This document shows positions 1,840 through 63,065 of a stretch of 64,000 bases of DNA, piece by piece (position 1 is the stretch's first letter; each line of letters opens with the position of its first letter). The position numbers and the translations under genes are program-made. The notes under the pieces were generated by a model, which ran no database searches, was not told where the DNA came from, and was given only the letters and a program-made list of their open reading frames with translations. Source of the stretch: Patescibacteria group bacterium (GTDB taxonomy: Bacteria > Patescibacteriota > Patescibacteriia > Patescibacteriales > WJLG01); NCBI GenBank assembly GCA_041652555.1, contig JBAZHE010000003.1, forward strand, positions 4,096 through 68,095, read 5' to 3'.

Positions 1840-2465
1840 TCGAAAAAACAAAAGAAATATCAAAAGAACTATCTGAATATTCAGAGTCGGAACAATTGTT
1901 TTTACTCAATCAAATACGAACAATTCTTCACGAAACAAGTCCAATGAAAAATGAACCGGTTGATCTTGTGTTATGGGTCAAATCTGAAACAGTGGGAAAA
2001 AACGATTATAACCCAAATACCGTTGCACCCCCGGAGATGAAATTACTTGAAACTTCAATCATAGAAGATGGATATACGCAACCGGTAGTTTCTTGGAAAA
2101 CGAACAATATTTTTGAAGTTGTTGATGGATTCCACAGAACAAGAGTAGGAAAGGAAAGCAAAGATGTCATTACACGTACACATGGATATTTACCCATTGT
2201 TAAAGTCAATCAAGAACGAACTGATCGTAATGATCGTATGGCTTCCACAATCAGGCACAACCGCGCGCGGGGGAAGCATATCGTATCGGGTATGAGCGAA
2301 ATCGTACAAGAACTAGCACATCGCAGATGGAGTAACGAGAAGATTGGTCATGAACTGGGGATGGAACCCGATGAAGTGTTACGGTTAAAACAAGTAATGG
2401 GTCTTGCAGATTTATATAAAGAACGGGAATTTTCAGAAGCGTGGGAAGCGAAAGAACAAATTTAA
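1824..2465 (+). CDS. ParB N-terminal domain nuclease-like protein (IbrB-like)
   Basis: ParB-type motif VVDGFHRTRVG and ..HNRARGKH..; overlaps upstream PAPS-reductase gene; AAGGAG RBS 7 nt upstream. Confidence 0.75.
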   Translation: MGSDLIEKTKEISKELSEYSESEQLFLLNQIRTILHETSPMKNEPVDLVLWVKSETVGKNDYNPNTVAPPEMKLLETSIIEDGYTQPVVSWKTNNIFEVVDGFHRTRVGKESKDVITRTHGYLPIVKVNQERTDRNDRMASTIRHNRARGKHIVSGMSEIVQELAHRRWSNEKIGHELGMEPDEVLRLKQVMGLADLYKEREFSEAWEAKEQI

Positions 2466-2479
2466 AAAGGAGTATTAAA

Positions 2480-3208
2480 ATGCCACTACAAAAAGGTACG
2501 GAAAGATACAGATTGTGGAAAGAACACATTGATGAGGCTGCTGATAAAAGGAAAAATATTCCATTATCCCCAGAACATTGTGAAAAAATAAGCGAGTCTA
2601 ATAAAGGACGTATAAAATCTAAAGAAGAATGCGAACATATTAGCAAGGGGCTTAAAAACAAACCCAAGACACCGGAACATCGTAAGCATTTAAGTGAGGC
2701 CAATATGGGAAAAACGTCTCCAAGGAAAGGTGTAAAATTATCTGATGCAACAAAAGAAAAGATTCGAGTGTCGAAACTTGGAATGAAATCATCTTTAGAA
2801 ACATGCGAAAAAATAAGTGAATCTTTAATAGGAAATACCAGAACACTTGGTTATGTCCATTCTGATGAAACCAAAATTAAGATGAGAAAATCAGCACATC
2901 GTGGACCCGACCATCCCAATTATAGAGGGGGGATAACCGCACTTGATAAAGCAATACGAAGACTTCCTGAATATGATACTTGGAAATATGGTGTATTTGA
3001 ACGAGATGATTACACCTGTAGAGAATGTGGGAAACGCGGGGGAGATATGGAAAGTCACCACGATAGAAAAACATTTGCTCAAATTATAAAAGATAATAAT
3101 ATTAGAACTATCGAAGACGCATTAAATTGTAAAGAACTATGGGACATTGATAACGGAGTTACATTGTGTGTTGATTGCCACGACAAAAGACACACGAAGA
3201 AAGAATAG
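2480..3208 (+). CDS. HNH homing endonuclease with NUMOD3-type repeats
   Basis: Repeated H..K(I/L)SE..KG modules; C-terminal YTCRECG...ESHH...DNGVTLCVDCHDKRH (HNH with Zn cysteines); start moved to ATG 2480 behind AAGGAG RBS, N-terminus parallels paralogs. Confidence 0.8.
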   Translation: MPLQKGTERYRLWKEHIDEAADKRKNIPLSPEHCEKISESNKGRIKSKEECEHISKGLKNKPKTPEHRKHLSEANMGKTSPRKGVKLSDATKEKIRVSKLGMKSSLETCEKISESLIGNTRTLGYVHSDETKIKMRKSAHRGPDHPNYRGGITALDKAIRRLPEYDTWKYGVFERDDYTCRECGKRGGDMESHHDRKTFAQIIKDNNIRTIEDALNCKELWDIDNGVTLCVDCHDKRHTKKE

Positions 3209-3210
3209 AT

Positions 3211-3906
3211 ATGCCACCACCGAAAGATCCGGAAAAATATGCTGCATGGATAGAAAAACAAAGATTATCCCATATAGGGAAACATGCATCACAATCCACC
3301 ACTGATAAAATGATCGCGTCACATAAAGGTCTAATTCCTTGGAATAAAGGTGTGCCTTCAACAGAAGTATCCAAGCATAACCAAAGTATCGCATTAAAAA
3401 ACAAACCGAAACCCCCACGAACAAAAGAACATTGTGAAAATATAAGCAAATCAAAAATGGGAAAAAACAATCCGATGTTTGGAGAACATCATACATTTGA
3501 CGCACATATAAAAATGCACAACGCGCAATTGGGGAATACTAAAAAACTTGGATATCATTTCCCGTTAGAAACTAGAATAGGAATGAGTGAAGAAAATAGA
3601 GGAGAAAATGCATCCCGATGGGAAGGTGGGATAACTCCATTGAATAAAATGATCCGTGAGTCGTGGGAATATAGAGAATGGGTAATTGCCGTTTTCATTA
3701 GAGATAATTATACTTGCCAAAAATGCAAAACGCGCGGTGGGTATTTAGAAGCACACCACATAAAACTATTTTCTTTGATTTTAAAAGAATATAATATATT
3801 AACACTGGAAGATGCAAAGAATTGTAAAGAATTGTGGGACATAGATAATGGTATAACATATTGTGTAGATTGTCACAAAGACATACATTTCAAAAATAAT
3901 AAATAA
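3211..3906 (+). CDS. HNH homing endonuclease with NUMOD3-type repeats (paralog 2)
   Basis: MPPPKDPEKY N-terminus as in paralog 3; YTCQKCK..LEAHH...DNGITYCVDCHKDIH; directly abuts paralog 1 stop. Confidence 0.8.
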   Translation: MPPPKDPEKYAAWIEKQRLSHIGKHASQSTTDKMIASHKGLIPWNKGVPSTEVSKHNQSIALKNKPKPPRTKEHCENISKSKMGKNNPMFGEHHTFDAHIKMHNAQLGNTKKLGYHFPLETRIGMSEENRGENASRWEGGITPLNKMIRESWEYREWVIAVFIRDNYTCQKCKTRGGYLEAHHIKLFSLILKEYNILTLEDAKNCKELWDIDNGITYCVDCHKDIHFKNNK

Positions 3907-3907
3907 C

Positions 3908-4771
3908 ATGCCTCCTCCGAAAGATCCAAAAAAATACGACGAGTGGATAAGAAAAAACAGCGAAGCACATAAAAATAAACATCCGTCTGAAGAAACACGA
4001 AATAAATTAAAAGGAAGAAACCCGTGGAATAAAGGAATACCATTATCAGAAGAAGCAAAACAAAAATTGAGTGAATCTTGTAAAGGTAGAATCCCTTGGA
4101 ATAAAGGTGTCCCTCATAAACAAGAATCTAAAAATAAAATGAGCATAAAGAAAAAAGGTATCCCATTATCAGAAGAACATAAAAAACATTTATCCGAATC
4201 TCACAAAGGATTAAAGCCAAACGTGACTCCGGAATCTATAGAAAAAAATCGTATTGCTCATCTTGGTAAAAAGGCATCGGAAGAAACAAAAGAAAAGATG
4301 AGTATATCACATAAAGGAAAATCTTCGTGGAATAAAGGAATTAAAACTCCGATAGAAATTAGAAATAAAATGAGCAAATCGATGAAAGGAATAAAAAAGT
4401 CTGATGGATTTAGAAAAAATATGAGTGGTGAAAACAATCTTAACTGGAAAGGTGGTATTACAGAATTGGATAAAGCAATCCGTGCATTACCGGAAATGTT
4501 CGAGTGGAGAAGAAAAGTTTTTGAACGCGACCATTATAGAGATTGTTTTACAGGAAGTCTTGGAAATCACAATATCGAAGCGCATCATATTGTCGCGGTA
4601 TCTTTAATTATGGAAAGATTTAATATAACTTCGATAGAAGATGCTTTAAATTGTGAAGATATGTGGAATATAGATAACGGAGTAACAATGTTTAAAAATT
4701 CACATATTGAGCATCACAAAAAATACAAATTACAAATATTACCAAAAGAATATTATTTTAAAAACCAATAA
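3908..4771 (+). CDS. NUMOD3-repeat endonuclease paralog 3 with degenerate HNH
   Basis: About 8 copies of xSEExKxKxSxSxKGxxPWNKG; C-terminal IEAHH...DNGVTMFKNSHIEHH lacks the Zn-binding cysteines present in paralogs 1-2. Confidence 0.7.
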   Translation: MPPPKDPKKYDEWIRKNSEAHKNKHPSEETRNKLKGRNPWNKGIPLSEEAKQKLSESCKGRIPWNKGVPHKQESKNKMSIKKKGIPLSEEHKKHLSESHKGLKPNVTPESIEKNRIAHLGKKASEETKEKMSISHKGKSSWNKGIKTPIEIRNKMSKSMKGIKKSDGFRKNMSGENNLNWKGGITELDKAIRALPEMFEWRRKVFERDHYRDCFTGSLGNHNIEAHHIVAVSLIMERFNITSIEDALNCEDMWNIDNGVTMFKNSHIEHHKKYKLQILPKEYYFKNQ

Positions 4772-5764: not shown

Positions 5765-5844
5765 TAGGTCTGGCCGGAGTTGAACCGGCTTACACATAGA
5801 CCGTGTTTGAGACGGTTCCATAGCCGTTCTGGATACACAGACCC
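5765..5844 (-). tRNA. tRNA-Leu(CAA)-like, class II (long variable arm), irregular D region
   Basis: Hand fold on minus strand: acceptor GGGTCTG/CAGACCT (G1-U72), anticodon arm ACCGT-CTCAAAC-ACGGT, T arm GCCGG-TTCAACT-CCGGC; acceptor/D junction has extra nt. Confidence 0.6.
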
Positions 5845-5847
5845 AAA

Positions 5848-5929
5848 TGAGTGATGCCGGATGCGCGCCGGCGATGTTTCCTTGTACGGAGTCTAAATCC
5901 GGTGAAGTCGGCTTCTGTTCCAATCACTC
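5848..5929 (-). tRNA. tRNA-like gene, anticodon UAG (Leu), aberrant T and D loops
   Basis: Acceptor GAGTGAT/ATCACTC, anticodon loop TTTAGAC, long variable arm; T loop is CGCGCAT (no TTC) and D loop lacks GG. Confidence 0.4.
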
Positions 5930-5948
5930 TCGATTTCCCACAATGGGA

Positions 5949-6033
5949 TGCGTCCGTCAGGATTTGAACCTGAAATGTTTCGCTTCGTCACAGTGTTTAA
6001 GACTGTTGCGTTCAACCGTTTCGCCACGGACGC
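5949..6033 (-). tRNA. tRNA-Leu(UAA), class II
   Basis: Acceptor GCGTCCG/CGGACGC, D arm GCG-AAACGGTTGAA-CGC, anticodon arm ACAGT-CTTAAAC-ACTGT, T arm TCAGG-TTCAAAT-CCTGA. Confidence 0.85.
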
Positions 6034-6035
6034 GA

Positions 6036-6119
6036 TGTGTGAAGCAAGATTTGAACTTGCGTCGTTTCCTTGTCTGGAACCTCGATCCAGTGGAGTCAAC
6101 CGTGCTGTCCCATTCACAC
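6036..6119 (-). tRNA. tRNA-Leu(GAG), class II, C at position 33
   Basis: Acceptor GTGTGAA/TTCACAC, D arm GGA..TCC, anticodon arm CTGGA-TCGAGGT-TCCAG, T arm GCAAG-TTCAAAT-CTTGC. Confidence 0.7.
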
Positions 6120-6168
6120 ATAACTTATATGTTTTCAAATCATTTATACTTTCCCCTATGTAAGAGGA

Positions 6169-6253
6169 CGCCAACGACAGGAATTGAACCTGCAACCCTG
6201 TTAAGGGCGACGGTTTTCAGGACCGTTTAGCGCACCGCACTCCCCACGTTGGC
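6169..6253 (-). tRNA. tRNA-Ser(UGA)-like, class II, C33 and atypical D arm
   Basis: Acceptor GCCAACG/CGTTGGC, anticodon arm ACGGT-CCTGAAA-ACCGT, variable stem CCCT/AGGG, T arm GCAGG-TTCAATT-CCTGT. Confidence 0.55.
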
Positions 6254-6262
6254 AATAATATG

Positions 6263-6338
6263 AGCCGGATGAGAGAATTGAACTCCCGCCCTTTCGATTA
6301 CAGATCGAATGCACCAAACCAACAGATGCTTATCCGGC
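6263..6338 (-). tRNA. tRNA-Thr(UGU), class I, C at position 33
   Basis: Acceptor GCCGGAT/ATCCGGC, D arm GCAT..GTGC, anticodon arm TTCGA-TCTGTAA-TCGAA, T arm GGGAG-TTCAATT-CTCTC. Confidence 0.7.
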
Positions 6339-6340
6339 GA

Positions 6341-6428
6341 CGCTGCCTGAAAGATTTGAACTTTCGTTTCCGATCAGGAAAGCAACTTTAGCAGAATTGC
6401 GGCATAAACCAGACTCGCCCAAGGCAGC
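6341..6428 (-). tRNA. tRNA-Ser(GCU), class II
   Basis: Acceptor GCTGCCT/AGGCAGC, D arm GGC..GCC, anticodon arm CAATT-CTGCTAA-AGTTG, variable stem TTTCC/GGAAA, T arm GAAAG-TTCAAAT-CTTTC. Confidence 0.85.
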
Positions 6429-6580
6429 AAGATGAAACCAATACAAAACACCCTCACGATGTGGTGAGAAGCGTCAAACTGGACAGTAAACGCAATGATA
6501 GAATAGATGTTGATACGTTTATATTTACTGTCATGATATATAATAGTGTATGTTGTAATAGTATTTAAATATTTCTACAA

Positions 6581-6662
6581 TTGGTGGAGAGGGATTTGAA
6601 CCCTCGAAGCACTAAACACCGGATTTTGAATCCGGCCCCTTTGACCGCTCGGGTATCCACCA
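6581..6662 (-). tRNA. tRNA-Leu(CAA), class II, U1-A72
   Basis: Acceptor TGGTGGA/TCCACCA, D arm CCC-GAGCGGTCAAA-GGG, anticodon arm CCGGA-TTCAAAA-TCCGG, T arm GAGGG-TTCAAAT-CCCTC. Confidence 0.8.
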
Positions 6663-6792: not shown

Positions 6793-9700
6793 CTAAAAAC
6801 CCCACTTCCCCAACGTCGGAGTCGCCGGGTCAAACTCGCACCAGTTGAAATTCAACGGTTCCATAATCCGTGATAACGGAGTCTTTAAAGTCTTCTCTAA
6901 CATTGTATCAACATCAACTATAAAAATGTTTCTATCTATTTGATCCGCATACTCAAAACAAACTACATCCGTGCGCGGATATTTTGAAGTAACATTCTTA
7001 ATATATAAACGTTTCGGTTTTGACCCCTTACCAAAATTCGTTCCCAGATAAGTGTTAGAATACACCGCCGCGCGCACCTGCGCATCTTGGATATCATATT
7101 CTTCCAATGGTTTACCAATGCCGCCGGGAATTCCTACATCGTCGAGACTATATTTACCCGCGCGGTATTTACGTATAACATCCGAAATAGTAGTTCTGAT
7201 TTCTTCATAAGGTTTGCCCTCAAGAACCATCTCGATAAGTGTTTTCATTGCGTCACGTGTGACCTTGGGGGAATCCGACCGCTTGGTTTCAAAACCCACA
7301 ATATCAATTTTATGCGCGTCTACACCTTCCTTCCAAATAAGGAGTCCAGCGTATCGCTTCTTCTTCCCGCCGCTAAAAAATCTCTGGTATAATTTTTCAA
7401 ATTTCACGGAGAAATATTGAACATCGGCATTTAATGTTTCTTTTGCAAACTGTGGATATGAGTTATTAAGAAGCGTTTCAAGTTCCTTCGCAATAAACAT
7501 AGTTCCTTCTTTCCCAATACTTTTTGGTATCTTTATACCAACCGAATCGGTATCACCAAAAACAATTTTATATTCTTCGTGTTCTACAAGTTTTTTGTTG
7601 TGCTCCAAAAGCGCGCGCCCTACTGATGTAATAGCCGAACCCACGTCACGGTCATTAAGACGGAACATCGGATTTGCCGAAACCCCATAATAAGAATTCA
7701 TGCAAACCTTAACCACGTCCTGTTTCATATTTAAAAGTTTATACTCACGAGAATCAAAAGGATACTTATTCCGTTCCTTTTTCATCTCATCTCGTTCACG
7801 TAAAAATTTCGCCTGAATCTTTCTAACCAATCCATCGGGTTCTTTTTTAAATCTGACACCATTAGGAGCGCGCAGTTCTCCTTTTGGATCTTTGGTTTCT
7901 GGAGATGCATTAATAGTCATCATCGACATTGGATACAATGATTTAGCATCCAAAACAGCAACGTTTTCTTGCACTCCGCGCATGGGAGCAATAACCGTAG
8001 CCCCTTCAAACGATTCTTGTGTATTTATAGAATTTGCCTTTGAAGGTAAAATAAACCCATTTTCTTTTGCTTCTCTCAAAACCAACATATCAATAATAGG
8101 CATACTATTTGTTGTCTTTTCCAGAGGACACCCGGCATAATGAGCAACATACCTGTGGAATTCAACAGTTTCGTCTTTTGCATTAATACCTACACATAAT
8201 TCCACATCAGTGAAGTTATAGTAAACCAGATTGGTAGGATCTTCTTTCCATAAATCGAAAACCTTTCCATTGTGATGGATTTTTTGTTTCCCCAATTCTT
8301 CTAATGCTATTGCATCAAGGCGATAAGAAGGTTGTTCACCCAAATGCATTCTTTTATACCCGGATAATAAATCAAAAAGTTGACGACCTTTGATTTCTAT
8401 GCGCCCGGTGTTTCCACTAGGCAACCGCGACCACGCATCGCGCGGGATACCTAATACATCCATACGACCCAGAATGTAAGGTATATCAAATTCATTACAA
8501 TTATGTACAACGCAACCAATCGAAAAATTATGTTCTGTCGTTTCAATATCGTAGCAATTTTTAGGCACGTCGTTACTTACATTTTTTACCCGCAGATACA
8601 TATTAGTTAGATTTCTATTAAAATTAAATCTGAAATGATCTTTCCTAGTAACTCGTTTTCTCTTAATTATATGGATTTTATTTTTTATTTTCTTCTGCAA
8701 AAACTTTTTCATACACTCTAATAGTTTTTGGGTTATACATAAGATCCGTAAATTTATATTACATGTAGATGAAGTTATCGCACCAAATCCTGCAAATAAC
8801 TGAAAATGCCGAATATTAATAGTATGATCTCCTATACAAAAGACATCTGAATACCCATCGCCATCATACCATCCAGCTAAAAAAGCCCCGAACTCTTCTA
8901 CAGATAGACGAGATAATAAACCAAAATTGAGTTGTTTCTTATCACCAACCAGAATGAGATGTTCTGCCCCTTTTAGATCTCGCTGCAATATATTAGAACA
9001 CCAGACACCTTTTGTAAACCATCTATGGTTTTCCCCGCAACATCTATTAATGAGGTTTATATTTTTATTGTAAAATCTAAATCTCCACTTATCTGGTCTG
9101 GCGCCATCGGAATAAATAAGTCCAGCCCTGTAACAATTAAAAGGATCAAGCCCGAGACCAATATTATTTTCATACTGCCGTATTGGAATATGCAATATAC
9201 TATCAGAAGTTATATTTTTAGAAATTTCGTATGTTGGTTCATAGTTTTCGCAATGTTCCCACACATAATGACGATCTTGTGGAATTTGAGAAACTAACAT
9301 TCGATGATCTTCCCCAACAATAAAATCCCATCCAATAGATGTTCTTATACGAGTTGTATTCTTAACCCCCGTATTATAAACGGATACAACTTTTCCACCT
9401 GTGTTTAAAACAATACCCGGTATTAATGCCTTAATTGGTATAAGACCGTTTTTTGTGTCAACCATTGTATCTTCTGGAACGCAGTTCCACCCCGTAATAA
9501 TATCCGGATCTGTGGATTTGATATATTCACAAAAATCCACAAGAAGAGATTTTTCATCCGTGTATGTTATAACGTCGTGGTGAGCGGGATCAAAGCACCC
9601 GTTCTCTTTAGGTGTTTCTATAAGAGGTGAAGTAGCGACAACAAATGTAATATAACGATTTGTAAAACTATCATGACAAGTAATGCAAAAAATTGGATCT

Positions 9701-10164
9701 TTCGTTGCATCCGGGAACCCGCGTTCATCAGAACATTCAATATCCACAATACAAACGCGCGCGGGATAGTTTAAATCTTTGAATAATATGTCGTCAATCG
9801 TGCATGGTGATTGTGTATAAGAGAAACCAGATTTTATTTTTGTATCAATCAGAAACCTCAATGTGTATAAAATATCCGCTTCATAGTGTTTAGAAAACTT
9901 CTCGCGCGATTCAAAAATGTCACCGGGTTTTTGAGTAATGACTTTCACCAAAGGTTCATGGAGAATGGAAAAATATTCATTTGAATCAACTTCGGAGGGT
10001 GGTGTTGCTTTGGGGGATTCTGATGCGGGAACAAAAAAATAAGGTTTGAAACCAACCACATCCACACGATGAGAAACACCGGAGGAGTCACGACCGAAGA
10101 TGTTAATGACAGGAGAGTTGTTATGGAAGGAGTATTCGGCTTGAGTTAAGCAGAGATCAGGCAT
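6793..10164 (-). CDS. polB: family B DNA polymerase, intein-containing (795-aa extein + 328-aa intein)
   Basis: Exo I VDIECS, Exo II GWN/CNEFDIPY (split by intein), motif A DAKSLYPMSMM, motif B KVCMNSYYGV, motif C VFGDTDSV. Confidence 0.95.
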   Translation of the reverse strand: MPDLCLTQAEYSFHNNSPVINIFGRDSSGVSHRVDVVGFKPYFFVPASESPKATPPSEVDSNEYFSILHEPLVKVITQKPGDIFESREKFSKHYEADILYTLRFLIDTKIKSGFSYTQSPCTIDDILFKDLNYPARVCIVDIECSDERGFPDATKDPIFCITCHDSFTNRYITFVVATSPLIETPKENGCFDPAHHDVITYTDEKSLLVDFCEYIKSTDPDIITGWNCVPEDTMVDTKNGLIPIKALIPGIVLNTGGKVVSVYNTGVKNTTRIRTSIGWDFIVGEDHRMLVSQIPQDRHYVWEHCENYEPTYEISKNITSDSILHIPIRQYENNIGLGLDPFNCYRAGLIYSDGARPDKWRFRFYNKNINLINRCCGENHRWFTKGVWCSNILQRDLKGAEHLILVGDKKQLNFGLLSRLSVEEFGAFLAGWYDGDGYSDVFCIGDHTINIRHFQLFAGFGAITSSTCNINLRILCITQKLLECMKKFLQKKIKNKIHIIKRKRVTRKDHFRFNFNRNLTNMYLRVKNVSNDVPKNCYDIETTEHNFSIGCVVHNCNEFDIPYILGRMDVLGIPRDAWSRLPSGNTGRIEIKGRQLFDLLSGYKRMHLGEQPSYRLDAIALEELGKQKIHHNGKVFDLWKEDPTNLVYYNFTDVELCVGINAKDETVEFHRYVAHYAGCPLEKTTNSMPIIDMLVLREAKENGFILPSKANSINTQESFEGATVIAPMRGVQENVAVLDAKSLYPMSMMTINASPETKDPKGELRAPNGVRFKKEPDGLVRKIQAKFLRERDEMKKERNKYPFDSREYKLLNMKQDVVKVCMNSYYGVSANPMFRLNDRDVGSAITSVGRALLEHNKKLVEHEEYKIVFGDTDSVGIKIPKSIGKEGTMFIAKELETLLNNSYPQFAKETLNADVQYFSVKFEKLYQRFFSGGKKKRYAGLLIWKEGVDAHKIDIVGFETKRSDSPKVTRDAMKTLIEMVLEGKPYEEIRTTISDVIRKYRAGKYSLDDVGIPGGIGKPLEEYDIQDAQVRAAVYSNTYLGTNFGKGSKPKRLYIKNVTSKYPRTDVVCFEYADQIDRNIFIVDVDTMLEKTLKTPLSRIMEPLNFNWCEFDPATPTLGKWGF
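8500..9483 (-). mobile_element. intein with LAGLIDADG homing endonuclease in PolB (residues 228-555)
   Basis: Starts CVPEDTMVDTKNG, ends CVVHN followed by +1 Cys; two LAGLIDADG motifs (YRAGLIYSDGA, FLAGWYDGDGY); removal restores T4/RB69-like GWNxxxFDIPY. Confidence 0.9.
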
Positions 10165-16642: not shown

Positions 16643-17336
16643 ATGGAAACTTACGAAGATAAACTCATTAAAGAACGATATTGCGTCGATGGAGAAAATA
16701 GTTATCCCGATGTTTGTGAACGTGTAGCGCGATTCATTTCAAGCAACGACGAACAATATCATCAGTTCAAGAAAATTCTTGTAGATAAAGATTTTTTGCC
16801 CAACTCACCAACCCTGATGAATGCCGGAACTTCTAACCCCGCCTTGTCAGCGTGTTTCTTTTTGCCGGTAGAAGATACAATTGAAAGTATTTTTGATGCT
16901 AACAAAAATGCAGCAAAAATCTTCGCTCGTGGGGGCGGGGTCGGATTCAATTTCTCAAAACTCCGACCCGCTGGAAGCAAAGTTGGAAAACGCAACGGTG
17001 TTTCCTCCGGTGTGGTTTCATTTATGGAAGTTTTTAACACAATGACAGAGGTTGTCAAGCAAGGAGGCCGTCGCCGGGGAGCTATGATGGGATGCCTTGA
17101 TATTGCGCATCCAGAAATCAAAAACTTTGTGACATGTAAACAGACAGAAGGAAAACTCTCTAACTTTAATATCTCTGTCAAACTCACAGATGAATTCATG
17201 AAGAATCCCACACCCGAAATCATGAACTTGATTGTGAACGGAATTTACAATAACGGAGAGCCGGGAATTCTGTTCAAAGATACAATCGAAAAGTATAACC
17301 CGGCTCCCGAATATGGAGAACTCAATACAAATCCAT
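16643..17336 (+). CDS. nrdJ: class II (B12-dependent) ribonucleotide reductase, exon 1
   Basis: FLPNSPTLMNAG, LSACFFLPVEDT, GGGVGFNFSKLRPAGS, QGGRRRGAMM; exon ends ...NTNP + T (first base of the Cys codon). Confidence 0.9.
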
Positions 17337-17607
17337 TAAACTCCGTGTGGATTTAAAATCGCGTAAATTGCTGGAACACCCTTAAGCATCTCTAACTACA
17401 ACGCAATCAGAAATGATAAACGTGAACGTTTTAAAAATAGAAATGATTGGGCAATCAGCAGCCAAGCATCTTATCAATAAGATGAAGGTTCAGAGACTAT
17501 AGACGCGACATCGATGATATAGTCCGATCTCATATGAGAATATGAGAGTGTGACAGAAATGATCACACCTGCAACGAAGCATCGTTGCTGTAACAAAAAA
17601 CCTCTTG
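17337..17607 (+). ncRNA. group I self-splicing intron, 271 nt, no ORF
   Basis: P1: exon AATCCAT (17330-36) pairs with intron GTGGATT (17347-53), U-G wobble at the splice site; core CAGAGACTATA (17491-501) and GATATAGTCC (17516-25) with P7 GACTA/TAGTC; three 3' hairpins; terminal G 17607; splicing gives an in-frame TNPCGE. Confidence 0.85.
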
Positions 17608-19001
17608 GCGGGGAGGCTCTATTAGAATCATGGGGGAGCTGCAACTTGGGTAGCATCAACCTTTCCCACCACATAAAAGACAATGCAATTGACTACGACA
17701 AACTCAAAGCCACAATAGACACAGCGGTTATATTCCTCAATAATGTAATCGACAAAAACAAATACCCACTCCAAGAAATTGACTTTGCATCCAAGCGAAC
17801 GCGCAAGATCGGTCTCGGTGTTATGGGATTCCACGACGCGTTGATTAAAATGGGGATTCCTTATAATAGTCAGAAGGCACTTGATATTGCCGAAGAAATT
17901 ATGAAATTTATTAATGAGCGCGCACATGAAGTGTCAGAGTCATTGGGTAAGAATCCGAATATCAAACAGAACAGGTTAAATGCTTCATTGACTTCGATTG
18001 CACCAACGGGAACAATTAGTATTATTGCGGGTGCTTCATCAGGTATCGAACCCGCATTTAATTGGGTATATACGCGGCATGACACGTTGGGCGAACATTA
18101 TATTGTGCATCCGTTGTTTGAAGAAGCGTTGAAAAATCTAATGACTGATCTTAATGGCAAAGTAGGATTCTTCGTAACCGTGGATGGCGTAAAATATGAT
18201 ACGTTGGATGGAACGAGACAAGCCATTATTAGACACTGCCATGAAAAGGGGACGATTCGCGATATAGAATTTTTACCAGATTCTTTCAAACTCCTCTACC
18301 AAAACGCAATGGACATCCCTTCATCAATGCACGTAAAAATGCAGGCCACATTCCAAAAGAATGTGGATATGTCCATTTCAAAAACAATCAACCTTCCAAA
18401 CTCTGCTACTAAAGAAGAAATCAAACAGATCATTATTGACGCGTGGAAGAGTGGTTGTAAAGGTCTTACAATCTATCGCAATGGTAGCCGTGAGAATGAA
18501 GTGTTGGCACTTAAGAAACCCGTGGTTGTTGAAAGTATCGTAGATTGGATCGAAACTGAAAATGCTTTCTACGAATCCAAAACCCCCGCTGTAATTTACA
18601 AAGTCCATAGTGGATGCGGGAAATTCTATGTTATCATTGGCCACGACAAAGAGGAACCAACAATGATCTTTGTGGAAGGTGATGGTGTTGGTGGGTGTCA
18701 GGCAAATATGGCAGCAATGGGGCGTTCTATTTCGGCAGGATTGGAATGGGGGACACCAGCAGAGAACTATGTAAAACAATTCTCTAAAGTAAAGTGCATG
18801 ACGGCGATGCAGAACAAATTATCGTGTGGTAAATCGTGCGCGGATATTACAGGAAAATGTTTGGACGATGCGATAAAAATGTTAATGCCCAAAAGTATAA
18901 AGGTTGAAGCAACAGAAGAAAAATGTTGTGACGCGCCGCATTATGTGATGGAAGGCGGATGCAGGATTTGTACGAATTGTGGCAAAAGTAGGTGTTCGTG
19001 A
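17608..19001 (+). CDS. nrdJ: class II ribonucleotide reductase, exon 2
   Basis: Begins GC GGG GAG.. giving C-GEALLESWGSCNLGSINL; RKIGLGVMGFHDAL, TSIAPTGTIS, ISKTINLP; Cys-rich C-terminal tail; exons total 2088 nt = 695 aa. Confidence 0.9.
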
Positions 19002-21538: not shown

Positions 21539-21777
21539 TTAGAATAAAAATAATAGAAAATGCTGGAAATCATTTTGCTCAACGATTTTTAAAAAATTGT
21601 TTTGGTGGTGATGAAGCAGTAGCATACCTCGCATCCCAAAAAGCACATTGGCTTGAAAATCACGAAAGGGAAATTGGATTTCTCACTAAAGAATTCGGGG
21701 ATTTAAAAATATCGATTGGAGATGATTATGAGTTGTTTGATTCCGAATACACCGATTTATTTGAGGTTGTTGAATGA
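21535..21777 (+). CDS. hypothetical protein (80 aa)
   Basis: ORF track; ATGA overlaps at both ends. Confidence 0.5.
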   Translation: MIRIKIIENAGNHFAQRFLKNCFGGDEAVAYLASQKAHWLENHEREIGFLTKEFGDLKISIGDDYELFDSEYTDLFEVVE

Positions 21778-23330
21778 TTATCCAAGGCGACGCTTTAACA
21801 GTTTTGAAAAGGATGGATAGTGAGTCAGTGCATTGTGCGGTAACGTCAAGTCCATATTATGGATTGCGTTCGTACAATACCGAACCACAAATATGGGATG
21901 GAGATCCAAACTGCCAACATGAATGGGGGGAAGTTCATCCACCGGGATATAGATCATCTGATACAAAACCGGGTCCAATGCAACATGAAGGGAATACGCA
22001 CCGTGAGAATTTGCGAAGTGATATTTGTTCAAAGTGTGGAGCGTGGAAAGGTGAACTGGGACAAGAGCCTACACCTGAATTGTTTGTTAAACACCTAACA
22101 ACTATCTTTCATGAATTAAAAAGGATTTTAAGAAGCGACGGTGTTTTCTGGATGAATATTGGGGATAGTTATTGTGCTTCTAAATGCGGATCGTTCAACG
22201 GTGGATCAGATATTCTTAAAGGAAGAAATCTTGAAGGTCACTCTAAATCCGGGAATGTAGATAAGTCAAAACTTATGGGAATGAAACCCAAAGACCTTAT
22301 TGGTATCCCGTGGGCTTTAGCATTTTCTATGCGCTCCGATGGTGCCTCATCACCACAGACAATGTATACAGTAGAAAAAATCAAAACTTCGTTGCTTCGA
22401 GATTATGATACTTGGAATGACGTTCCAAAACATACTAAAAGAACAATTGAAGATTTGGATGAAGAGTGGTTAAAAGCAAGTAAGGGGGGTTGGTATCTCC
22501 GTTCTGATATTCCTTGGGTAAAAAGAAATTCACTTCCATCATCTGTAACAGATCGCCCCGGCTCTTCCATTGAACACATATTCTTATTCTCAAAATCACA
22601 GAAATATTACTATGACTACATAGCAACAATGCAACTTTCATCAGAATCTTACAACAAAGATAAAAGACCGCGCGGTGTTATTCGTCAATGCGTAAACACA
22701 AACTCCAAGTATCCAGATGGGGGGCAATTTAAAAAGCAAGATAACACAGGGAATGAAACTTACACAGGATTTAACGCTCGCTATGAACCTAATGGTTATG
22801 GCCTTCGTTACATGCGGGATTCCGATTTCTTCTTCAAGACATGGCAAGGACTTCTTCACAATGAAGATGGTGAACCAATGGCTCTTGTGGTAAATCCGAA
22901 ACCGTATAAAGGTTCACATTTTGCCGCATATCCGATAAGGCTTGTAGAACCCCTAATTCTCGCGGGAACATCAGAAAAAGGCGTTTGCCCACATTGTGGA
23001 GCGCCGTGGGTTAGAGTTGCGAAAAAAGAATCATATATAACTCGCCCCACCATTGGTTCTGATGATCAGAAGCAAAAACTCAATCCCGGTAATGCGCAGG
23101 GATTAGAACGCACTGGTGGTCATGTTGCTCAAATTACTGAAACCATAGATTGGCAACCATCTTGTAATTGCACAAATAACATACCAGTTCCCGCCACAAT
23201 TCTCGATCCCTTCTCCGGCTCATCAGCAACCGGTGTCGCTTGTAAACTCCATAATCGTGATTATATTGGTATAGAACTCAATCCTGAATATTGTGAACTT
23301 GGAAGAAAACGTATTCGTGAAGGCAAATAA
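21774..23330 (+). CDS. N4-cytosine / N6-adenine DNA methyltransferase (beta class), large insertion
   Basis: Motif IV VTSSPYYGLRSY near N-terminus, motif I ILDPFSGSSATGVA near C-terminus; no adjacent nuclease. Confidence 0.85.
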   Translation: MIIQGDALTVLKRMDSESVHCAVTSSPYYGLRSYNTEPQIWDGDPNCQHEWGEVHPPGYRSSDTKPGPMQHEGNTHRENLRSDICSKCGAWKGELGQEPTPELFVKHLTTIFHELKRILRSDGVFWMNIGDSYCASKCGSFNGGSDILKGRNLEGHSKSGNVDKSKLMGMKPKDLIGIPWALAFSMRSDGASSPQTMYTVEKIKTSLLRDYDTWNDVPKHTKRTIEDLDEEWLKASKGGWYLRSDIPWVKRNSLPSSVTDRPGSSIEHIFLFSKSQKYYYDYIATMQLSSESYNKDKRPRGVIRQCVNTNSKYPDGGQFKKQDNTGNETYTGFNARYEPNGYGLRYMRDSDFFFKTWQGLLHNEDGEPMALVVNPKPYKGSHFAAYPIRLVEPLILAGTSEKGVCPHCGAPWVRVAKKESYITRPTIGSDDQKQKLNPGNAQGLERTGGHVAQITETIDWQPSCNCTNNIPVPATILDPFSGSSATGVACKLHNRDYIGIELNPEYCELGRKRIREGK

Positions 23331-26958: not shown

Positions 26959-27143
26959 AAGATGGTTATAAATTAACAATATTTTTAAGTGTTATAGTAA
27001 TAATATTGGCAATATTTATACATGGCACAGTTATTCATTTAACACAAGTGGGTGAATTTCAAAAATGTGTAAATGCAACACTTTCTGATCCACTCTATTC
27101 CACATTTGCATGTGATAGACCGGGATGGTGGTTTGGAATATGA
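26955..27143 (+). CDS. small membrane protein (62 aa)
   Basis: ORF track; one TM helix; AAGGAGG RBS. Confidence 0.5.
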   Translation: MKDGYKLTIFLSVIVIILAIFIHGTVIHLTQVGEFQKCVNATLSDPLYSTFACDRPGWWFGI

Positions 27144-29617
27144 AAATCCTTTTTATCTTACCTAGATTTAATAAAGGTTTCGGAACTGTCTACAATGAAA
27201 ACGAAACCGGTATTGACTATGATTACTTAATGCCCGTGGGAATGCCCTACATCGCTTCTTATCTCAAACACAATGGATGTGATGTCTCGGCATTAAACCT
27301 TAATCACACACCCGGATTGGTTAAAAACATTGTACAAAAAACTATTACTGACACTCACTATGATTTCGTATTCACCGGCACAATTTCCATAATGTATCCC
27401 GCTGTGCGCGATATAATAAAATATGTACACGAAGCATCTCCCAATACAATAACCGTCTGTGGTGGAGGTATCATTTCGTCTAACCCCGAACTAATGATGA
27501 AACTTATTAATCCACATTACGGGATTATTTTTGAGGGTGAAGAAACAGCATTAGAGTTGATACAAACTATTGAGAAGGGGCAATCTGTGGAAAATGTTAA
27601 AGGTATTATTTATTCAACAACATGGCCTATTCCAACGTTTACTAAAACACAACCACGCCCCCAAATCAAAAACCTAGATGCACTCCCGTTTCCCGATCTT
27701 GAACTATTCGGTTATTCCGAATACTTGAAACACCAAGAACTTGGCGGTTGGAATCAATATCCACGAGATTATCCACCGCGCCCGTATATGTTGGTTTCAG
27801 CGCGCGGTTGTTCGGCAAATTGTTTATCAGGAGACACTTTAATTGCAACCACAAATGGCAACATTAAAATAAAAGATCTCGTTGGGCAGACCCCAAAAGT
27901 TCTTACACGAGATCCAATTACAAAAGATGTATTATATGCACAGTCCTCAATAGTTGCTAAAACCGGAGAAAATAAAAATCTCGTTAGAGTTTCATTTAAA
28001 GAGGGGGGATATATTGACTGTACACCAGATCACAAATTTGTAAAATTTTTAAACTCAAACCAATATGTCCCGTTGAGAGAGTATGAAACGGAAGCACAAT
28101 TTTTGAGACCCGGTGATAGTGTTCGTGCTGTTCATTATAAATTGAGCACCACTGGTTACACGATTATAATATGGGGAAGGAAAAAGCATCGATATCAGCA
28201 CACTTTAATAATGGAATCTATGATTGGAAGGAAACTCTCACAATACGAAAGGGTTCATCACAATGATCATAATCAAATAAATAATGTTGAAAAAAATTTA
28301 ACACTTACCGACAATCATAAACATATCCCAACTTACCATCCAGAACTATCACAACGTATGAAAGATAATAATCCCGCAAAAAATCTACCACACGAATTTT
28401 TTGTGCAACGCGGAAAAGAACAACGTGGTAAAGTTCGCTCTATAGAATCCAGAATGAATTATAAAGCATCCAAAACGGGGAATAAAAATCCGATGTGGAA
28501 AGGTGGTTGTGGAAGAACAACAAAATCCCGTATACCCGGGCAACCAGATGTAAATCACGTAGTTAAAAGCGTTGAACCACTAGATGGGTTACATAATACG
28601 TATTGTTTAGAAGTGCCGGGATATAATTGGTTCTATGCCAACGACGTTCTTGTTCATAATTGCACATTTTGCTACCACACAACCGGCCCAAAATACCGCT
28701 ACCGTTCCGCAGAAAATATAATGTCAGAAATCAAATACGTTGTTGAAAAATACCACATTAACTTCTTCACATTTCTTGACGAATTGTTTTCATACGATAA
28801 AGCGCGCGCACTTGAATTCTGCCGACAATTTAAAGAATATCAGAAAACCATTCCGTGGCGAATTGAAATGTATTGCAATCTGCGCGTTGATTGCGCGGAC
28901 GCAGAACTTCTTGATGCCATGAAATCCTGTGGGAATGTAGTTATCGGATTAGGTCTCGAAAGTTACAACCAAAAAGTTCTCGATTCAATGCGAAAACACA
29001 TAACACCCGCGCAGATTGAAACCACGCTTGGAATGATCGCAGAAAGAAATCTTGTTCCGCAAGGGGGGTTCATCTTTGGAGATAATGCAGAAACACTTTC
29101 CACCGCACGCACTACTTTACAATTCATTCGAGAACACCCACATCTTTCACGAGGTGGTTTATTTATGGGCTTTATTATTCCGTTTCCCGGGACCGCTATT
29201 TATAAACATGCTTTACAAAATGGAATCATAAAAGATGAAATAGAATTTATTAATAAATTGACAAGCACGGATTATAATTATGATAACGTATGTAATCTCA
29301 CAAATTTATCAGATGAAGATTTTGACACGTTGAAAAATGAAGTGTTCACTTTAAAATACACAGCAATTCCCGTATCTGTTCCAACAAAAATAACCAATGA
29401 TGAAATCTTTGTAAAATGCCCCCATTGTGGGAAGATGCAAACTTATAAAACAACTAAACGACCACATGCGCAATTCAGCGTGGGGGTAATTTGTAATAAC
29501 CCCGAATGTAATGGAAGATTTGAAATGGGCACACGATATATTCAATTGGGGAGACTCGCTGTAAAGTTATTGGGATTTAAAAGAATGCGACGGATTAAAA
29601 ATTGGATGGGGATTTGA
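27140..29617 (+). CDS. B12-binding-domain radical SAM enzyme, intein-containing
   Basis: N-terminal Rossmann-like B12 domain (KILFILP.., VCGGG), radical SAM motif C-SAN-[intein]-C-TF-C, C-terminal Cys-rich zinc ribbon; ATGA start at 27140. Confidence 0.8.
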   Translation: MKILFILPRFNKGFGTVYNENETGIDYDYLMPVGMPYIASYLKHNGCDVSALNLNHTPGLVKNIVQKTITDTHYDFVFTGTISIMYPAVRDIIKYVHEASPNTITVCGGGIISSNPELMMKLINPHYGIIFEGEETALELIQTIEKGQSVENVKGIIYSTTWPIPTFTKTQPRPQIKNLDALPFPDLELFGYSEYLKHQELGGWNQYPRDYPPRPYMLVSARGCSANCLSGDTLIATTNGNIKIKDLVGQTPKVLTRDPITKDVLYAQSSIVAKTGENKNLVRVSFKEGGYIDCTPDHKFVKFLNSNQYVPLREYETEAQFLRPGDSVRAVHYKLSTTGYTIIIWGRKKHRYQHTLIMESMIGRKLSQYERVHHNDHNQINNVEKNLTLTDNHKHIPTYHPELSQRMKDNNPAKNLPHEFFVQRGKEQRGKVRSIESRMNYKASKTGNKNPMWKGGCGRTTKSRIPGQPDVNHVVKSVEPLDGLHNTYCLEVPGYNWFYANDVLVHNCTFCYHTTGPKYRYRSAENIMSEIKYVVEKYHINFFTFLDELFSYDKARALEFCRQFKEYQKTIPWRIEMYCNLRVDCADAELLDAMKSCGNVVIGLGLESYNQKVLDSMRKHITPAQIETTLGMIAERNLVPQGGFIFGDNAETLSTARTTLQFIREHPHLSRGGLFMGFIIPFPGTAIYKHALQNGIIKDEIEFINKLTSTDYNYDNVCNLTNLSDEDFDTLKNEVFTLKYTAIPVSVPTKITNDEIFVKCPHCGKMQTYKTTKRPHAQFSVGVICNNPECNGRFEMGTRYIQLGRLAVKLLGFKRMRRIKNWMGI
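27821..28660 (+). mobile_element. intein with HNH endonuclease domain (280 aa) inside the radical SAM CxxxCxxC motif
   Basis: Starts CLSGDTLIATTNG, block B TPDHKF, ends NDVLVHN + Cys; internal HRYQH..VHHNDHNQINN..NL..H HNH signature. Confidence 0.85.
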
Positions 29618-39286: not shown

Positions 39287-40168
39287 TTACCACCCCCACA
39301 TATCATGATATGCTTTATGAGAATTCTTCAACATGGTGATTCCATTATTTATATCCCATAATTCTTCGCATGATTCTGCTTCTTCCAAAGTCGTTATATT
39401 ATATTTTTCTATTATTGTATGGAAAGGTATTATATGGTGTGCTTGAATAGGGTTTTTGCGTGTTCCTTTGCATCCGCTGAACCAATCTCGGTAATTATCT
39501 CTGGCAAATATAGAAAGAATCCATTTTCTCATTTTTGTGCAATGTCTAATTTGATTATTTAATGATGTGACACCATCCTTCCATTGATATGCATTTTCAC
39601 CACGTCTTATATATCTTAAATTTAAACATTTATCCTCTGACCATTTTTTCCCGATTCGAAATTTGCGACTGCATTCATCAGAACAAAATTTCCCCCTTTC
39701 GTGATCAACTTTGTATTGTGTGGTTTCAAATTCTTTCCCACATTGCTGACAAACACGATTTATACGTTTTCTTCTGGCAATCGATTTACATCCAACCGAG
39801 CAATATTTCCCACCACCCCTAACAATATAAGATGTCCACACTTCAAATTCTTTTCCGAATGTCAAGCATTTACATTTTATTTTACTTCTATTTCCGATAT
39901 ATGCACACTCACGAGAACAATATTGCGGGTGTTGATATGGATATTTTACTTCGAATACAATTCCACATTGTTTACAAATACGCAAAACATCACGGATTTT
40001 TGATTCCGTTGGATGTAATATTTTATTTCTTTCCCTCCCATATTCACTTTGGCAATCTTTACACCACATTTGCAATCCATCTTTTCTACTTTTTTCTCTC
40101 CTAAACTTCGTTAACGGCAATCCCCTCTTACACCGACTACAAACCTTTGTTTTAATTTCTTCTTCCAT
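39287..40168 (-). CDS. zinc-ribbon-rich endonuclease paralog with degenerate HNH
   Basis: Several CxxC..CxxC ribbons; C-terminus QWKDGVTSLNNQIR..IQAHHIIPF..DINNGITMLKNSHKAYH aligns with the 2480-4771 paralogs. Confidence 0.65.
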   Translation of the reverse strand: MEEEIKTKVCSRCKRGLPLTKFRREKSRKDGLQMWCKDCQSEYGRERNKILHPTESKIRDVLRICKQCGIVFEVKYPYQHPQYCSRECAYIGNRSKIKCKCLTFGKEFEVWTSYIVRGGGKYCSVGCKSIARRKRINRVCQQCGKEFETTQYKVDHERGKFCSDECSRKFRIGKKWSEDKCLNLRYIRRGENAYQWKDGVTSLNNQIRHCTKMRKWILSIFARDNYRDWFSGCKGTRKNPIQAHHIIPFHTIIEKYNITTLEEAESCEELWDINNGITMLKNSHKAYHDMWGW

Positions 40169-45856: not shown

Positions 45857-46960
45857 TCATTTCCCCGACTTCGTTCTATTATGGTGCATACAAAGCATCT
45901 GACAATTATCTTCTACCGATTTTCCACCTTTTACCCACGGAACAATATGATCCGCTTCCATCTCTTCAAACTCATAATGTTTAGAGGGATCACATATAGG
46001 GCATATACCTTTTTGTCTTTCATATACTTTTGTTGTGATTTTTTCATCAAAGGTTCGTAAGTTTAAAGACGACTGATCTTTTTCTCCACTCAACAGGAAT
46101 TTATAAATACCTTTTTTATTTCCCACTTCATCGTCATCCATAAGTTCTTTGATGCGATCTTCCATAATAGAGGGGGTGTATTTAAAATCCTTATATTTAT
46201 TATAGAATATACCCCATTCTAACCCTTTCATTTCTTTTCTATAATTTGAAAATATTGCTTTCACCCAATTAATAACCCCTTGGAAATATAACCACATTTC
46301 ATTGGCATTAGTATCATGCTGGTGGATTGACATATAGTCTTCTATCCCAATACCGTCTCTTTCAGAAATCCATTTTATAGCGGTTTCCAAATAATCTTGT
46401 CTTATAGACGAACCCACCAAATATTTACTTGCAATATCGTGAGCAGGGCACATATTTTTTGAAAAATATTTTTTAGCGTCAGAAAGCCACTCTCCCGTAT
46501 AAGTGGCATTCCGCAATTCTTGATCAGTGAGTTTGATACCTGCTATATTTATAATTTTAAACCAATCTAACTTCTCCTTATCATTGCCTTGACAAATATA
46601 AATCATCAATTTATAATTTAATATTTGTTCCTTTTCCACATCTGTGAGATTGTGAAAAAACATACAATCTACTGAAAAATCACCATTAATATATTGGCAA
46701 ATACTCACTGTTCTTTGCTGACCATCAAGCAATTCATATGTGCCATTATTATTAACTACCCAATACATAATATTTAATGGGAACCCTTTAACAATTGTTT
46801 TAATAACTTCGTTTCTTTGATTAACATTATAAACAAATTCTCTTTGAAATGGTGGGCGAATATTTAGTTTACCATTATATCCAAATGCCCCATTTTCAAC
46901 ATCATCCACATATCCTTCTGATATTTCTTTAATAGGTATTTCTTTTAGTATTATTTTCAT
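45857..46960 (-). CDS. DUF262 (ParB-like NTPase) - HNH nuclease fusion
   Basis: N-terminal PPFQREFVYN and LLDGQQR; C-terminal CPICD..EADHIVPWVKGG..NCQMLCMHHNRTK. Confidence 0.8.
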   Translation of the reverse strand: MKIILKEIPIKEISEGYVDDVENGAFGYNGKLNIRPPFQREFVYNVNQRNEVIKTIVKGFPLNIMYWVVNNNGTYELLDGQQRTVSICQYINGDFSVDCMFFHNLTDVEKEQILNYKLMIYICQGNDKEKLDWFKIINIAGIKLTDQELRNATYTGEWLSDAKKYFSKNMCPAHDIASKYLVGSSIRQDYLETAIKWISERDGIGIEDYMSIHQHDTNANEMWLYFQGVINWVKAIFSNYRKEMKGLEWGIFYNKYKDFKYTPSIMEDRIKELMDDDEVGNKKGIYKFLLSGEKDQSSLNLRTFDEKITTKVYERQKGICPICDPSKHYEFEEMEADHIVPWVKGGKSVEDNCQMLCMHHNRTKSGK

Positions 46961-48506: not shown

Positions 48507-48599
48507 GCATATATGTAAGTTCTCATACTATTTATACTTATCTAAACAATTTTTATCAAATGGATACAATTAAATACTAGAAGCACCTACATTGTTTAC

Positions 48600-55652: not shown

Positions 55653-55725
55653 GTTCGCATAGCACAATTGGTAGTGCGTCGGGATTGCAATCCGAAGGTT
55701 GGGGGTTCAACTCCCCCTGCGAACT
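55653..55725 (+). tRNA. tRNA-Ala(UGC)-type (anticodon call only; no G3-U70)
   Basis: Acceptor GTTCGCA/TGCGAAC, D arm GCAC-AATTGGTA-GTGC, anticodon arm TCGGG-ATTGCAA-TCCGA, T arm GGGGG-TTCAACT-CCCCC; flanks extend the acceptor helix by 3 bp (gga/tcc). Confidence 0.8.
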
Positions 55726-62977: not shown

Positions 62978-63054
62978 GGGCCTGTAGCTCAGTCCGGTTA
63001 GAGCGCCCGGCTCATAACCGGGAGATTTCATCGGTTCAAATCCGATCTGGCCCA
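62978..63054 (+). tRNA. tRNA with CAU anticodon (Met or Ile2)
   Basis: GGGCCTG-TA-GCTC-AGTCCGGTTA-GAGC-G-CCCGG-CTCATAA-CCGGG-AGATTTC-ATCGG-TTCAAAT-CCGAT-CTGGCCC-A; one U-U mismatch in the acceptor, 7-nt variable loop. Confidence 0.75.
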
Positions 63055-63065
63055 CTAATCGAAAC

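Follow-up and report, generated by a model that had tools for sequence, protein, structure and literature searches.

A Group I Intron at the Catalytic Cysteine Codon of nrdJ in a Virus-Like Genome Most Likely Linked to Methanoregulaceae

The nrdJ Locus and Its Intron

In our study, a stretch of 64,000 nucleotides from contig JBAZHE010000003.1 was analysed, and this whole stretch is called the window. The window was found to contain the gene nrdJ, encoding a ribonucleotide reductase (RNR), in which the codon of the catalytic cysteine is split by a group I intron lacking an open reading frame (ORF) of its own. The features of the locus are given below.

16643..17336 (+), nrdJ exon 1: 231 codons and the T of the Cys232 codon; placed by the ORF list, the Pfam domains Ribonuc_red_lgN/lgC on the spliced product and the alignment with contig L001
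17337..17607 (+), ORF-less group I intron, 271 nucleotides: scores 67.3 bits with Rfam RF00028; corresponds exactly to the gap in the intron-less L001; eight variants at the same site
17354..17356 (+), in-frame TAA ending the read-through of exon 1, 18-20 nucleotides into the intron (ORF 16643..17356)
17608..19001 (+), nrdJ exon 2: GC of the Cys codon, the remaining barrel and the TSCPD/Cys-rich C-terminus; placed by Pfam, TIGR02504 and the T. maritima alignment

The Rfam covariance model Intron_gpI (RF00028) matched positions 17327-17546 of the forward strand (gathering threshold 50 bits, E 6.5e-15, model positions 1-253). No second group I intron was found in the window by a permissive Rfam E-value scan. 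Inside the intron the only frames were the one continuing from exon 1 and one opened by a chance GTG at 17550, and no endonuclease gene was present. The protein search returned close full-length homologues of about 680 amino acids as well as proteins corresponding to exon 2 only. Contig L001, which encodes the homologue P0003 (81% protein identity), shares synteny with the window, and its nrdJ is uninterrupted. In the DNA alignment its gap was exactly 17337-17607; the site codon is T/GT (Cys, the slash marking the insertion point), and the empty insertion site reads AACCCATGTACGGAAGC. The boundaries and the intron-less allele were thus observed directly. An earlier note on this DNA had proposed that the 271-nucleotide gap folds as a group I intron without an ORF, and had named a covariance-model search and a search for intron-less homologues as checks; both outcomes agree with it.

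Considering all the evidence presented here, it is probable that 17337-17607 is a genuine group I intron inside nrdJ of a large tailed-virus-like double-stranded DNA (dsDNA) genome, most likely infecting methanogens of the Methanoregulaceae.

The Spliced Product

Joining of 17336 to 17608 gave a single frame of 695 amino acids with the sequence ...NTNP-C-GEALLESWGSCNLGS, and this junction alone, among all frame-preserving T...G junctions, restored the motif NPCGE. The predicted ligated exon junction is ...AAATCCAT/GCGGGGAGG..., which can also be written ...AAAUCCAU/GCGGGGAGG..., and the junction-spanning sequence expected in the spliced mRNA is AATACAAATCCATGCGGGGAGGCTC. The spliced product contained the RNR barrel, an all-alpha domain and a TSCPD domain in Pfam, and scored 553.8 bits with NCBIfam TIGR02504 (NrdJ_Z) against a cut-off of 399.95. 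In the alignment with T. maritima NrdJ (1xjk), the rebuilt Cys232 corresponded to Cys322, which we take from the structural literature to be the thiyl-radical cysteine, and the junction fell inside the ungapped TNPCGE block. By these profiles the spliced gene is a class II (adenosylcobalamin-dependent) RNR, NrdJ, its use of the cofactor being predicted. The Cys codon built from T and GC, the 695-residue frame with its N-x-C-x-E loop and the class II assignment had all been put forward in the earlier note, and they hold.

The two unspliced ORFs (237 and 483 amino acids) lacked the catalytic Cys in the N-x-C-x-E context. Gene callers annotate nrdJ as two ORFs, and P0006, P0011 and P0014 are such exon-2-only proteins. 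The nrdJ deposited on an NCBI contig labelled as Paceibacterota, which is described below, is also given as separate ORFs, one of them a 'hypothetical protein'. The ratio of nonsynonymous to synonymous substitutions (dN/dS) in the exons was 0.04-0.08 when the window was compared with seven further genes that carry the intron, at a proportion of synonymous differences (pS) of 0.58-0.76, which is near saturation. These values were observed directly and indicate that the nrdJ enzyme is under purifying selection, hence in use in these genomes. Selection on the exons, together with the fact that neither unspliced ORF has the catalytic Cys within its motif, means that the intron has to be removed; with no splicing there is no enzyme active site.

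Conserved Structure of the Intron

The paired regions (P) of the intron and its 3' end are given below.

17329..17354 (+), P1: exon AAAUCCAU (17329-36) with the guide GUGGAUUU (17347-54); U17336·G17347 at the 5' splice site
17341..17346 (+), guide strand CUCCGU of P10: pairs with GCGGGG of exon 2 (17608-17613) in six standard pairs
17359..17364 (+), 5' strand UCGCGU of P3: pairs with ACGCGA (17503-08), pseudoknotted with P7, 100% paired
17369..17460 (+), P4-P5 domain: P4 17369-74/17455-60, P5 17379-81/17449-51, P5a 17387-94/17438-45, and internal hairpins
17461..17489 (+), P6 and P6a: P6 17461-62/17488-89; P6a 17467-73/17478-84, with a U-A to C-G double change
17495..17524 (+), P7: GACUA (17495-99) with UAGUC (17520-24), enclosing the 3' strand of P3 and a vestigial P8, CAUCGAUG (17509-16)
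17529..17546 (+), P9 hairpin: GNRA loop, GAGA here and GAAA in relatives
17548..17568 (+), P9.1 hairpin: U-A to C-G double change in 4/6 variants
17571..17588 (+), P9.2 hairpin: in variant L004 a different yet paired hairpin, with two double changes
17607 (+), terminal (omega) G: G in 8/8 variants; the tail before it is variable in length and sequence

The fold and its covariation were read directly from the aligned variants, the covariation being drawn from only 6-8 closely related sequences. Among six variants, 96.9% of the pair cells were standard, against 33-40% when the partners were slid, and the helices numbered 3, 4, 5, 8 and 10 were 100% paired. Changes on both sides were found at five pairs, P1 among them. 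RNAalifold recovered the same helices independently, without being given them. The minimum free energy of the fold had a z-score of -3.7, and none of 200 shuffles was as stable. The conserved core elements were R = GUUCAGAGACUAUA and S = GAUGAUAUAGUCC.

All eight pairs of P1 were standard, and U17336·G17347 was invariant. The pair 17335/17348 was A-U in three variants and G-C in three; the synonymous exon change CCA to CCG (Pro) was matched by a T to C change in the P1 guide. In P10, 97.2% of the cells were paired, and one-sided changes in L005 and L007 kept the pairing (G·U to A-U and C-G to U·G). In P5a, as drawn by RNAalifold, a C-G to U-A double change was found. The first pairing considered for P5a, AAUCA/UGAUU, had C·A mismatches in 4/6 sequences, and the covarying RNAalifold alternative was preferred.

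The earlier note had drawn P1 with a U-G at the splice site, P10, a conserved core with P7 GACTA/TAGTC, three 3' hairpins (17529-46, 17548-68 and 17571-88) and a terminal G at 17607. Each of these elements was recovered at the positions listed; the three hairpins all pair and are kept in six variants.

Copies and Occupants of the Insertion Site

Intron copies at the same site were found in L002-L007 and in nine further metagenome contigs, giving eight distinct sequence variants including that of the window. The homologous copies scored 69-79 bits with RF00028, and splicing restored the frame and the Cys codon in 8/8 variants. Every NrdJ-borne copy found in IMG/VR and in the JGI metagenomes occupied this site, and the exact 21-nucleotide core was present in IMG/VR only in the four nrdJ contigs already known. 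One metagenome hit, L203, was rejected as a copy of the nrdJ intron. The group I intron at 300-1010 of L203 is unrelated and GC-rich, contains a LAGLIDADG ORF and lies in another gene, one of unknown function; what it shares with the nrdJ intron is the exact 21-nucleotide core GGTTCAGAGACTATAGACGCG and the P9.1 loop CAGAAAUGA. Its P8 region is of normal size, and its Rfam score is under the gathering threshold.

The intron was 91-97% identical across the same pairs whose exon DNA was only 71-80% identical. The ORF-less intron has probably moved recently and horizontally among related but diverged viruses, given that the synonymous sites of nrdJ are much less conserved. Movement might have occurred by recombination during co-infection or through an endonuclease acting in trans. 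The HNH and NUMOD3 enzymes of the window are candidates for moving the intron in trans; none of them adjoins nrdJ. Three tandem NUMOD3+HNH ORFs at 2441-4771 (+) resemble free-standing homing endonucleases, and a similar NUMOD3 array is present in L001. Another HNH protein and a GmrSD_N+HNH protein are encoded at 39287-40168 (-) and 45857-46960 (-).

In P0004 and P0015, which are close NrdJ homologues, a LAGLIDADG intein was found between Pro and the catalytic Cys (NCNP/CLYEN…VHN/CSEALL, with slashes at the intein ends). The intein site (window 17334-17337) precedes the point of intron insertion by one nucleotide. The site of the catalytic Cys in close relatives is therefore found empty (L001), with an intron (window) or with an intein (P0004). 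These inteins are, like the nrdJ intron, selfish self-splicing elements at the same catalytic cysteine; unlike it, they are removed at the protein level and carry their own endonuclease.

Further inteins are present elsewhere in the window. The gene for the family B DNA polymerase (PolB, 6793-10164) contains an intein of 328 amino acids at 8500-9483 (-), residues 228-555 (…DIITGWN/CVPEDTMV…CVVHN/CNEFD…), which is unflagged by Pfam and absent from the 795-residue PolB of L001. A B12-binding radical SAM protein (27125-29617) contains an intein of 280 amino acids with an HNH endonuclease at 27821-28660 (+). It precedes the second Cys of the Cx3Cx2C cluster motif (GCSAN/CLSGDTLI…VLVHN/CTFC) and is also absent from L001. 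The N6/N4 DNA methylase at 21774-23330 (+), of 518 amino acids, matches just 184 positions of its Pfam profile across residues 19-404, which suggests a large insertion within the domain.

Proposed Splicing and the Reduced Core

The proposed mechanism is the standard group I pathway, with catalysis predicted from the fold. The pre-mRNA would fold with the end of exon 1, AAAUCCAU, paired to the internal guide GUGGAUUU in P1. An external guanosine bound in P7 would then attack just 3' of U17336, the nucleotide that forms the wobble with G17347. The 3'-OH of exon 1 would in turn attack after G17607, with P10 (17341-46/17608-13) positioning exon 2. The ligation would join T and GC into UGC, the codon of Cys232, which is expected to be the radical-site cysteine of the N-x-C-x-E loop.

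Several observations weigh against a ribozyme that works by itself. The intron core is trimmed: P2 is absent, with AAAA linking P1 to P3, and so are P7.1 and P7.2, only 3 nucleotides lying between P7 and the 3' strand of P3. The place of P8 holds only 8 nucleotides (CAUCGAUG, 17509-16), allowing at most 2 base pairs and a tetraloop. The sole substitution in this stretch among the relatives, C to U, is uncompensated, and the Rfam alignment jumps 59 model positions at the P8 region. Because the core is trimmed in this way, its autonomous catalysis is not assured. Introns of the phage-type subgroups IA1/IA2 have the extra helices P7.1/P7.2, and membership of IA2 was rejected because these are absent.

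It is possible, though doubtful, that splicing in vivo proceeds only with a viral or host protein (maturase-like or chaperone), the ribozyme having been crippled by the loss of P2, P7.1/7.2 and most of P8. In a scan of IMG/VR for R and S cores 10-28 nucleotides apart, 100 stretches matched. The R-S spacing of the nrdJ intron family, 16 nucleotides, was the shortest among the matches listed, the others having at least 21 nucleotides, and such an extreme would suit dependence on a protein. The closest phage relative, in Aeromonas phage PhAER-4, keeps a 39-nucleotide P7.1/7.2 insert and a P8 of 6 base pairs. The position of the endonuclease gene in Staphylococcus phage PT1-4, downstream of the P3-P7 core, suggests a joint loss, and it is plausible that an endonuclease gene was lost together with P7.1 through P8. 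Against a need for protein, the remaining core (P1, P3-P7, the joining segment J8/7, P9 with its GNRA loop, P10 and the omega G) is intact and kept in eight variants, and no candidate maturase adjoins nrdJ.

Genome Type and Probable Host

The window was found to encode PolB, a primase-polymerase, helicases, an AAA_24/DUF669/YqaJ recombination set, methylases and PAPS reductase, as well as many glycosyltransferases and nine tRNAs. By this content it is virus-like and appears to belong to a large tailed-virus-like dsDNA genome. When 24 kb surrounding nrdJ were compared by megablast with the 50,697 phage records of INPHARED, no close relative was found, and tblastn of the primase-polymerase gave no matches.

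The sequence evidence makes it very probable that the host is archaeal, and specifically a member of the Methanoregulaceae. The tRNA that bears on this is the following.

62978..63055 (+), viral tRNA(CAU): its first 45 nucleotides are identical to Methanoregulaceae tRNA genes

In a search set of one genome per species (185,579 species), a 39-nucleotide segment of this tRNA had 83 exact matches; all 80 of those listed were from Methanoregula, Methanoregulaceae or Methanomicrobiales, and none was bacterial. The matching host sequences included chromosomes of 2.6-2.9 Mb. The 3' third of the tRNA (variable loop, T arm and 3' acceptor strand) has diverged, with compensated changes in the T stem. 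The gene could have come from the host as a tRNA-Ile2/Met reading AUA or AUG for the AT-rich virus, or it could be a recombination site of the att type; the window showed no integrase.

The second line of evidence comes from the promoters. TATA-like 8-mers (TTTAAATA, TATAAATA and similar, often after gAAAc) ended 21-27 nucleotides before the start of 18 genes, with a mode of 22. A match to the Shine-Dalgarno (SD) sequence was present in 1/18 of the TATA-preceded genes versus 38/82 of the others (Fisher p = 0.001), the 8-mer set being partly picked by eye, so that the test is supportive rather than decisive. A gap of about 22 nucleotides from TATA to ATG without SD is the archaeal leaderless geometry; a bacterial -10 box would sit closer. 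In DNA this rich in A and T, a loose TATA regular expression (235 hits) and a Gibbs sampler gave too much noise, and the stricter 8-mer set with the distance and SD test was used instead. A TATA box was also found 24 nucleotides before the tRNA-Leu at 6662. The motif of about gAAAc-TTTAAATA-cta, some 22 nucleotides before an SD-less ATG, was observed at genes 634, 11711(-), 15161, 23376, 47925(-) and 48600, and the same motif at genes 54515, 55907, 56711(-), 60474 and 61099(-). Divergent pairs of TATA-like boxes were seen at 48510-48600 and 58244-58280, and genes internal to operons had GGAGG/GGTGA-like SD sequences.

The affinities of three proteins point the same way. The nearest named cellular relatives of NrdJ were from Methanomicrobiales (Methanofollis, Methanolacinia, Methanoregula and Methanospirillum; 43-47% identity). 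Those of the GtrB-like glycosyltransferase at 61099-62205 were from Methanoregula and other Methanomicrobiales (46-49%). The best matches of PolB in the phage collection were haloarchaeal tailed viruses (31-33% identity, E down to 7e-81). The proposal of an archaeal virus, made earlier from the promoter architecture, is thus supported independently by the tRNA matches and the protein affinities, in addition to the promoter test itself.

Of the tRNA genes, seven form a cluster at 5765-6662 (-), and there are two others, one of them at 55653-55727 (+). The anticodons were UAA, CAA, UGA, UGU, UGC, GAG, GCU and CAU, which mostly match the preferred A/U-ending codons of the virus (TTA 29%, ACA 46%, GCA 42% and ATA 33%). 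The 'tRNA-Ala' (UGC) is without the G3·U70 identity pair. The tRNA at 5765-5844 was called by ARAGORN alone, and that at 6166-6254 only by the Rfam tRNA-Sec model, under gathering.

An archaeal host has several points against it. Identical or 98% identical proteins (MFA5247894.1, MFA5745592.1, MFA6258158.1, which is P0006, and P0130) are encoded on an NCBI contig of 138,951 bp labelled 'Candidatus Paceibacterota bacterium'. The content of guanine and cytosine (GC) is 37% in the virus versus 52% in the Methanoregulaceae loci. The helicase matches bacterial phages only, so it carries little host information, and the intron core is nearest to bacteriophage introns. No protein of the window matched the DNA around the 80 host tRNA loci, which leaves no evidence of a provirus, and Pfam revealed no hallmark protein specific to archaea in the window.

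These points could be combined into another explanation, which we judge unlikely: the intron is as described, and the genome is that of a bacteriophage, for example of Patescibacteria/Paceibacterota living beside methanogens, which would make it an ordinary phage nrd intron. The label on the contig would agree with it, the GC of 37% would fit Paceibacterota better than Methanoregula, and the bacterial-phage affinity of the helicase and of the intron core would be expected. Group I introns are also abundant in Patescibacteria (PMC13011429). Against this stand the tRNA segment, for which all 80 listed exact matches are Methanoregulaceae or Methanomicrobiales and none bacterial, and the fixed gap from TATA to ATG without SD. 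For two cargo genes the nearest proteins come from Methanoregula/Methanomicrobiales, and for PolB they come from haloarchaeal viruses. The bin labels on relatives of the same virus group are mutually inconsistent (Tissierellia and Babeliales). Such inconsistency is typical of mis-binned viral contigs, and the Paceibacterota label is probably a binning error. As to base composition, the viral tRNAs read UUA, UUG, UCA, ACA, GCA and possibly AUA, which are codons that the virus favours. The GC gap to the host would be accounted for because these tRNAs read the A/U-ending codons that an AT-rich virus prefers. The same pattern of GC and codons is found in large lytic phages with their own tRNA sets. 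The archaeal host is thus kept as the preferred reading.

Two further explanations concern the insert itself. A dead intron, leaving nrdJ as a pseudogene or as two assembling polypeptides of 237 and 483 amino acids, is very improbable; the two annotated ORFs would be in line with it, whereas the unspliced products lack the Cys context, the exons evolve at the low dN/dS given above and splicing restores the frame and the codon in every variant. A bulge-helix-bulge intron cut by the tRNA-splicing endonuclease and ligase of the host would suit a probably archaeal cell, in which this type of intron is common (PMC6125680), and is hardly conceivable for an insert that matches the full-length group I model, whose P1/P10 guide pairing covaries with the exons and whose core is homologous to bacteriophage group I introns.

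Comparison with Known Group I Introns

Group I introns occur in the RNR genes of bacteriophages, as in nrdB and nrdD/sunY of T4 and bnrdE/bnrdF of SPbeta. By 2009 RNRdb listed over 100 curated cases of group I introns within RNR genes (PMC2795772). The intron of the window resembles the phage nrd introns in being a group I ribozyme in a conserved catalytic segment of an RNR gene of a large dsDNA virus. Also shared are a stop codon in frame a short way past the 5' splice site and the behaviour of a mobile element. It differs from them in its location in a class II nrdJ of a virus that is most likely archaeal, and in lacking an endonuclease gene, P2, P7.1/7.2 and a proper P8.

The closest relatives in the databases were introns of Aeromonas, Staphylococcus, Bacillus, Listeria and Vibrio phages, with 72-81% DNA identity. 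The identity spans P3-P4-P5-P6-P7(5'), including the long P5 extension, and is about 78% in the P4-P5 domain. The intron of Aeromonas phage PhAER-4 (PQ495741.1; RF00028 90.5 bits) is, like that of the window, without P2, whereas it contains the P7.1/7.2 insert and the P8 mentioned above. The lysin intron of Staphylococcus phage PT1-4 differs in having an HNH endonuclease gene after the conserved core. The IA-type phage introns differ in that they sit in lysin, DNA polymerase and helicase genes of bacterial viruses.

In archaea, Nawrocki, Jones and Eddy (2018) reported 39 group I introns by covariance-model search, all in the 16S/23S rRNA genes of cellular genomes (PMC6125680). They were of subtypes IB4/IA3, about half of them with LAGLIDADG genes, and IA2 hits were set aside by the authors as possible phage contamination (PMC6125680). 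The nrdJ intron shares with these the nature of a group I ribozyme in what is probably an archaeal genetic system, and its detection by a covariance model; it differs in being phage-like, in an mRNA gene and viral. No report of a group I intron in an archaeal virus or an archaeal mRNA was found in the literature, in a search that covered subscription journals incompletely. The earlier note had described group I introns as very rare or absent in archaeal systems; this statement is dated for rRNA, given the 39 known introns, and holds for mRNAs and viruses as far as was found.

Significance

Group I introns are routine in bacteriophages and a textbook case in phage nrd genes, and the kind of intron described here is itself already known. 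The new aspects are the probable archaeal domain of the host, the reduced core and the three-state insertion site. On balance we lean towards the view that introns of bacteriophage type have crossed the boundary between domains and that they function inside methanogens, with a core that ranks among the most reduced natural ones known.

If this is true, a core without P2 and P7.1/7.2 and with a vestigial P8 works at a site that is filled by an intein in close relatives. The compact natural ribozyme of 271 nucleotides could then be used to ask how far P2 and P8 are dispensable. The nrdJ locus offers a natural experiment, since close relatives have the same catalytic-cysteine site either vacant or filled with an intron or an intein. 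In practical terms, gene callers split nrdJ into two 'hypothetical' ORFs, and a pipeline for metagenome-assembled genomes filed the virus under Paceibacterota. A phage-like nrdJ intron in a virus of the Methanoregula type would extend group I ribozymes to the archaeal virosphere, and would point to an exchange of selfish RNA between bacterial and archaeal viruses, for example in shared anaerobic communities.

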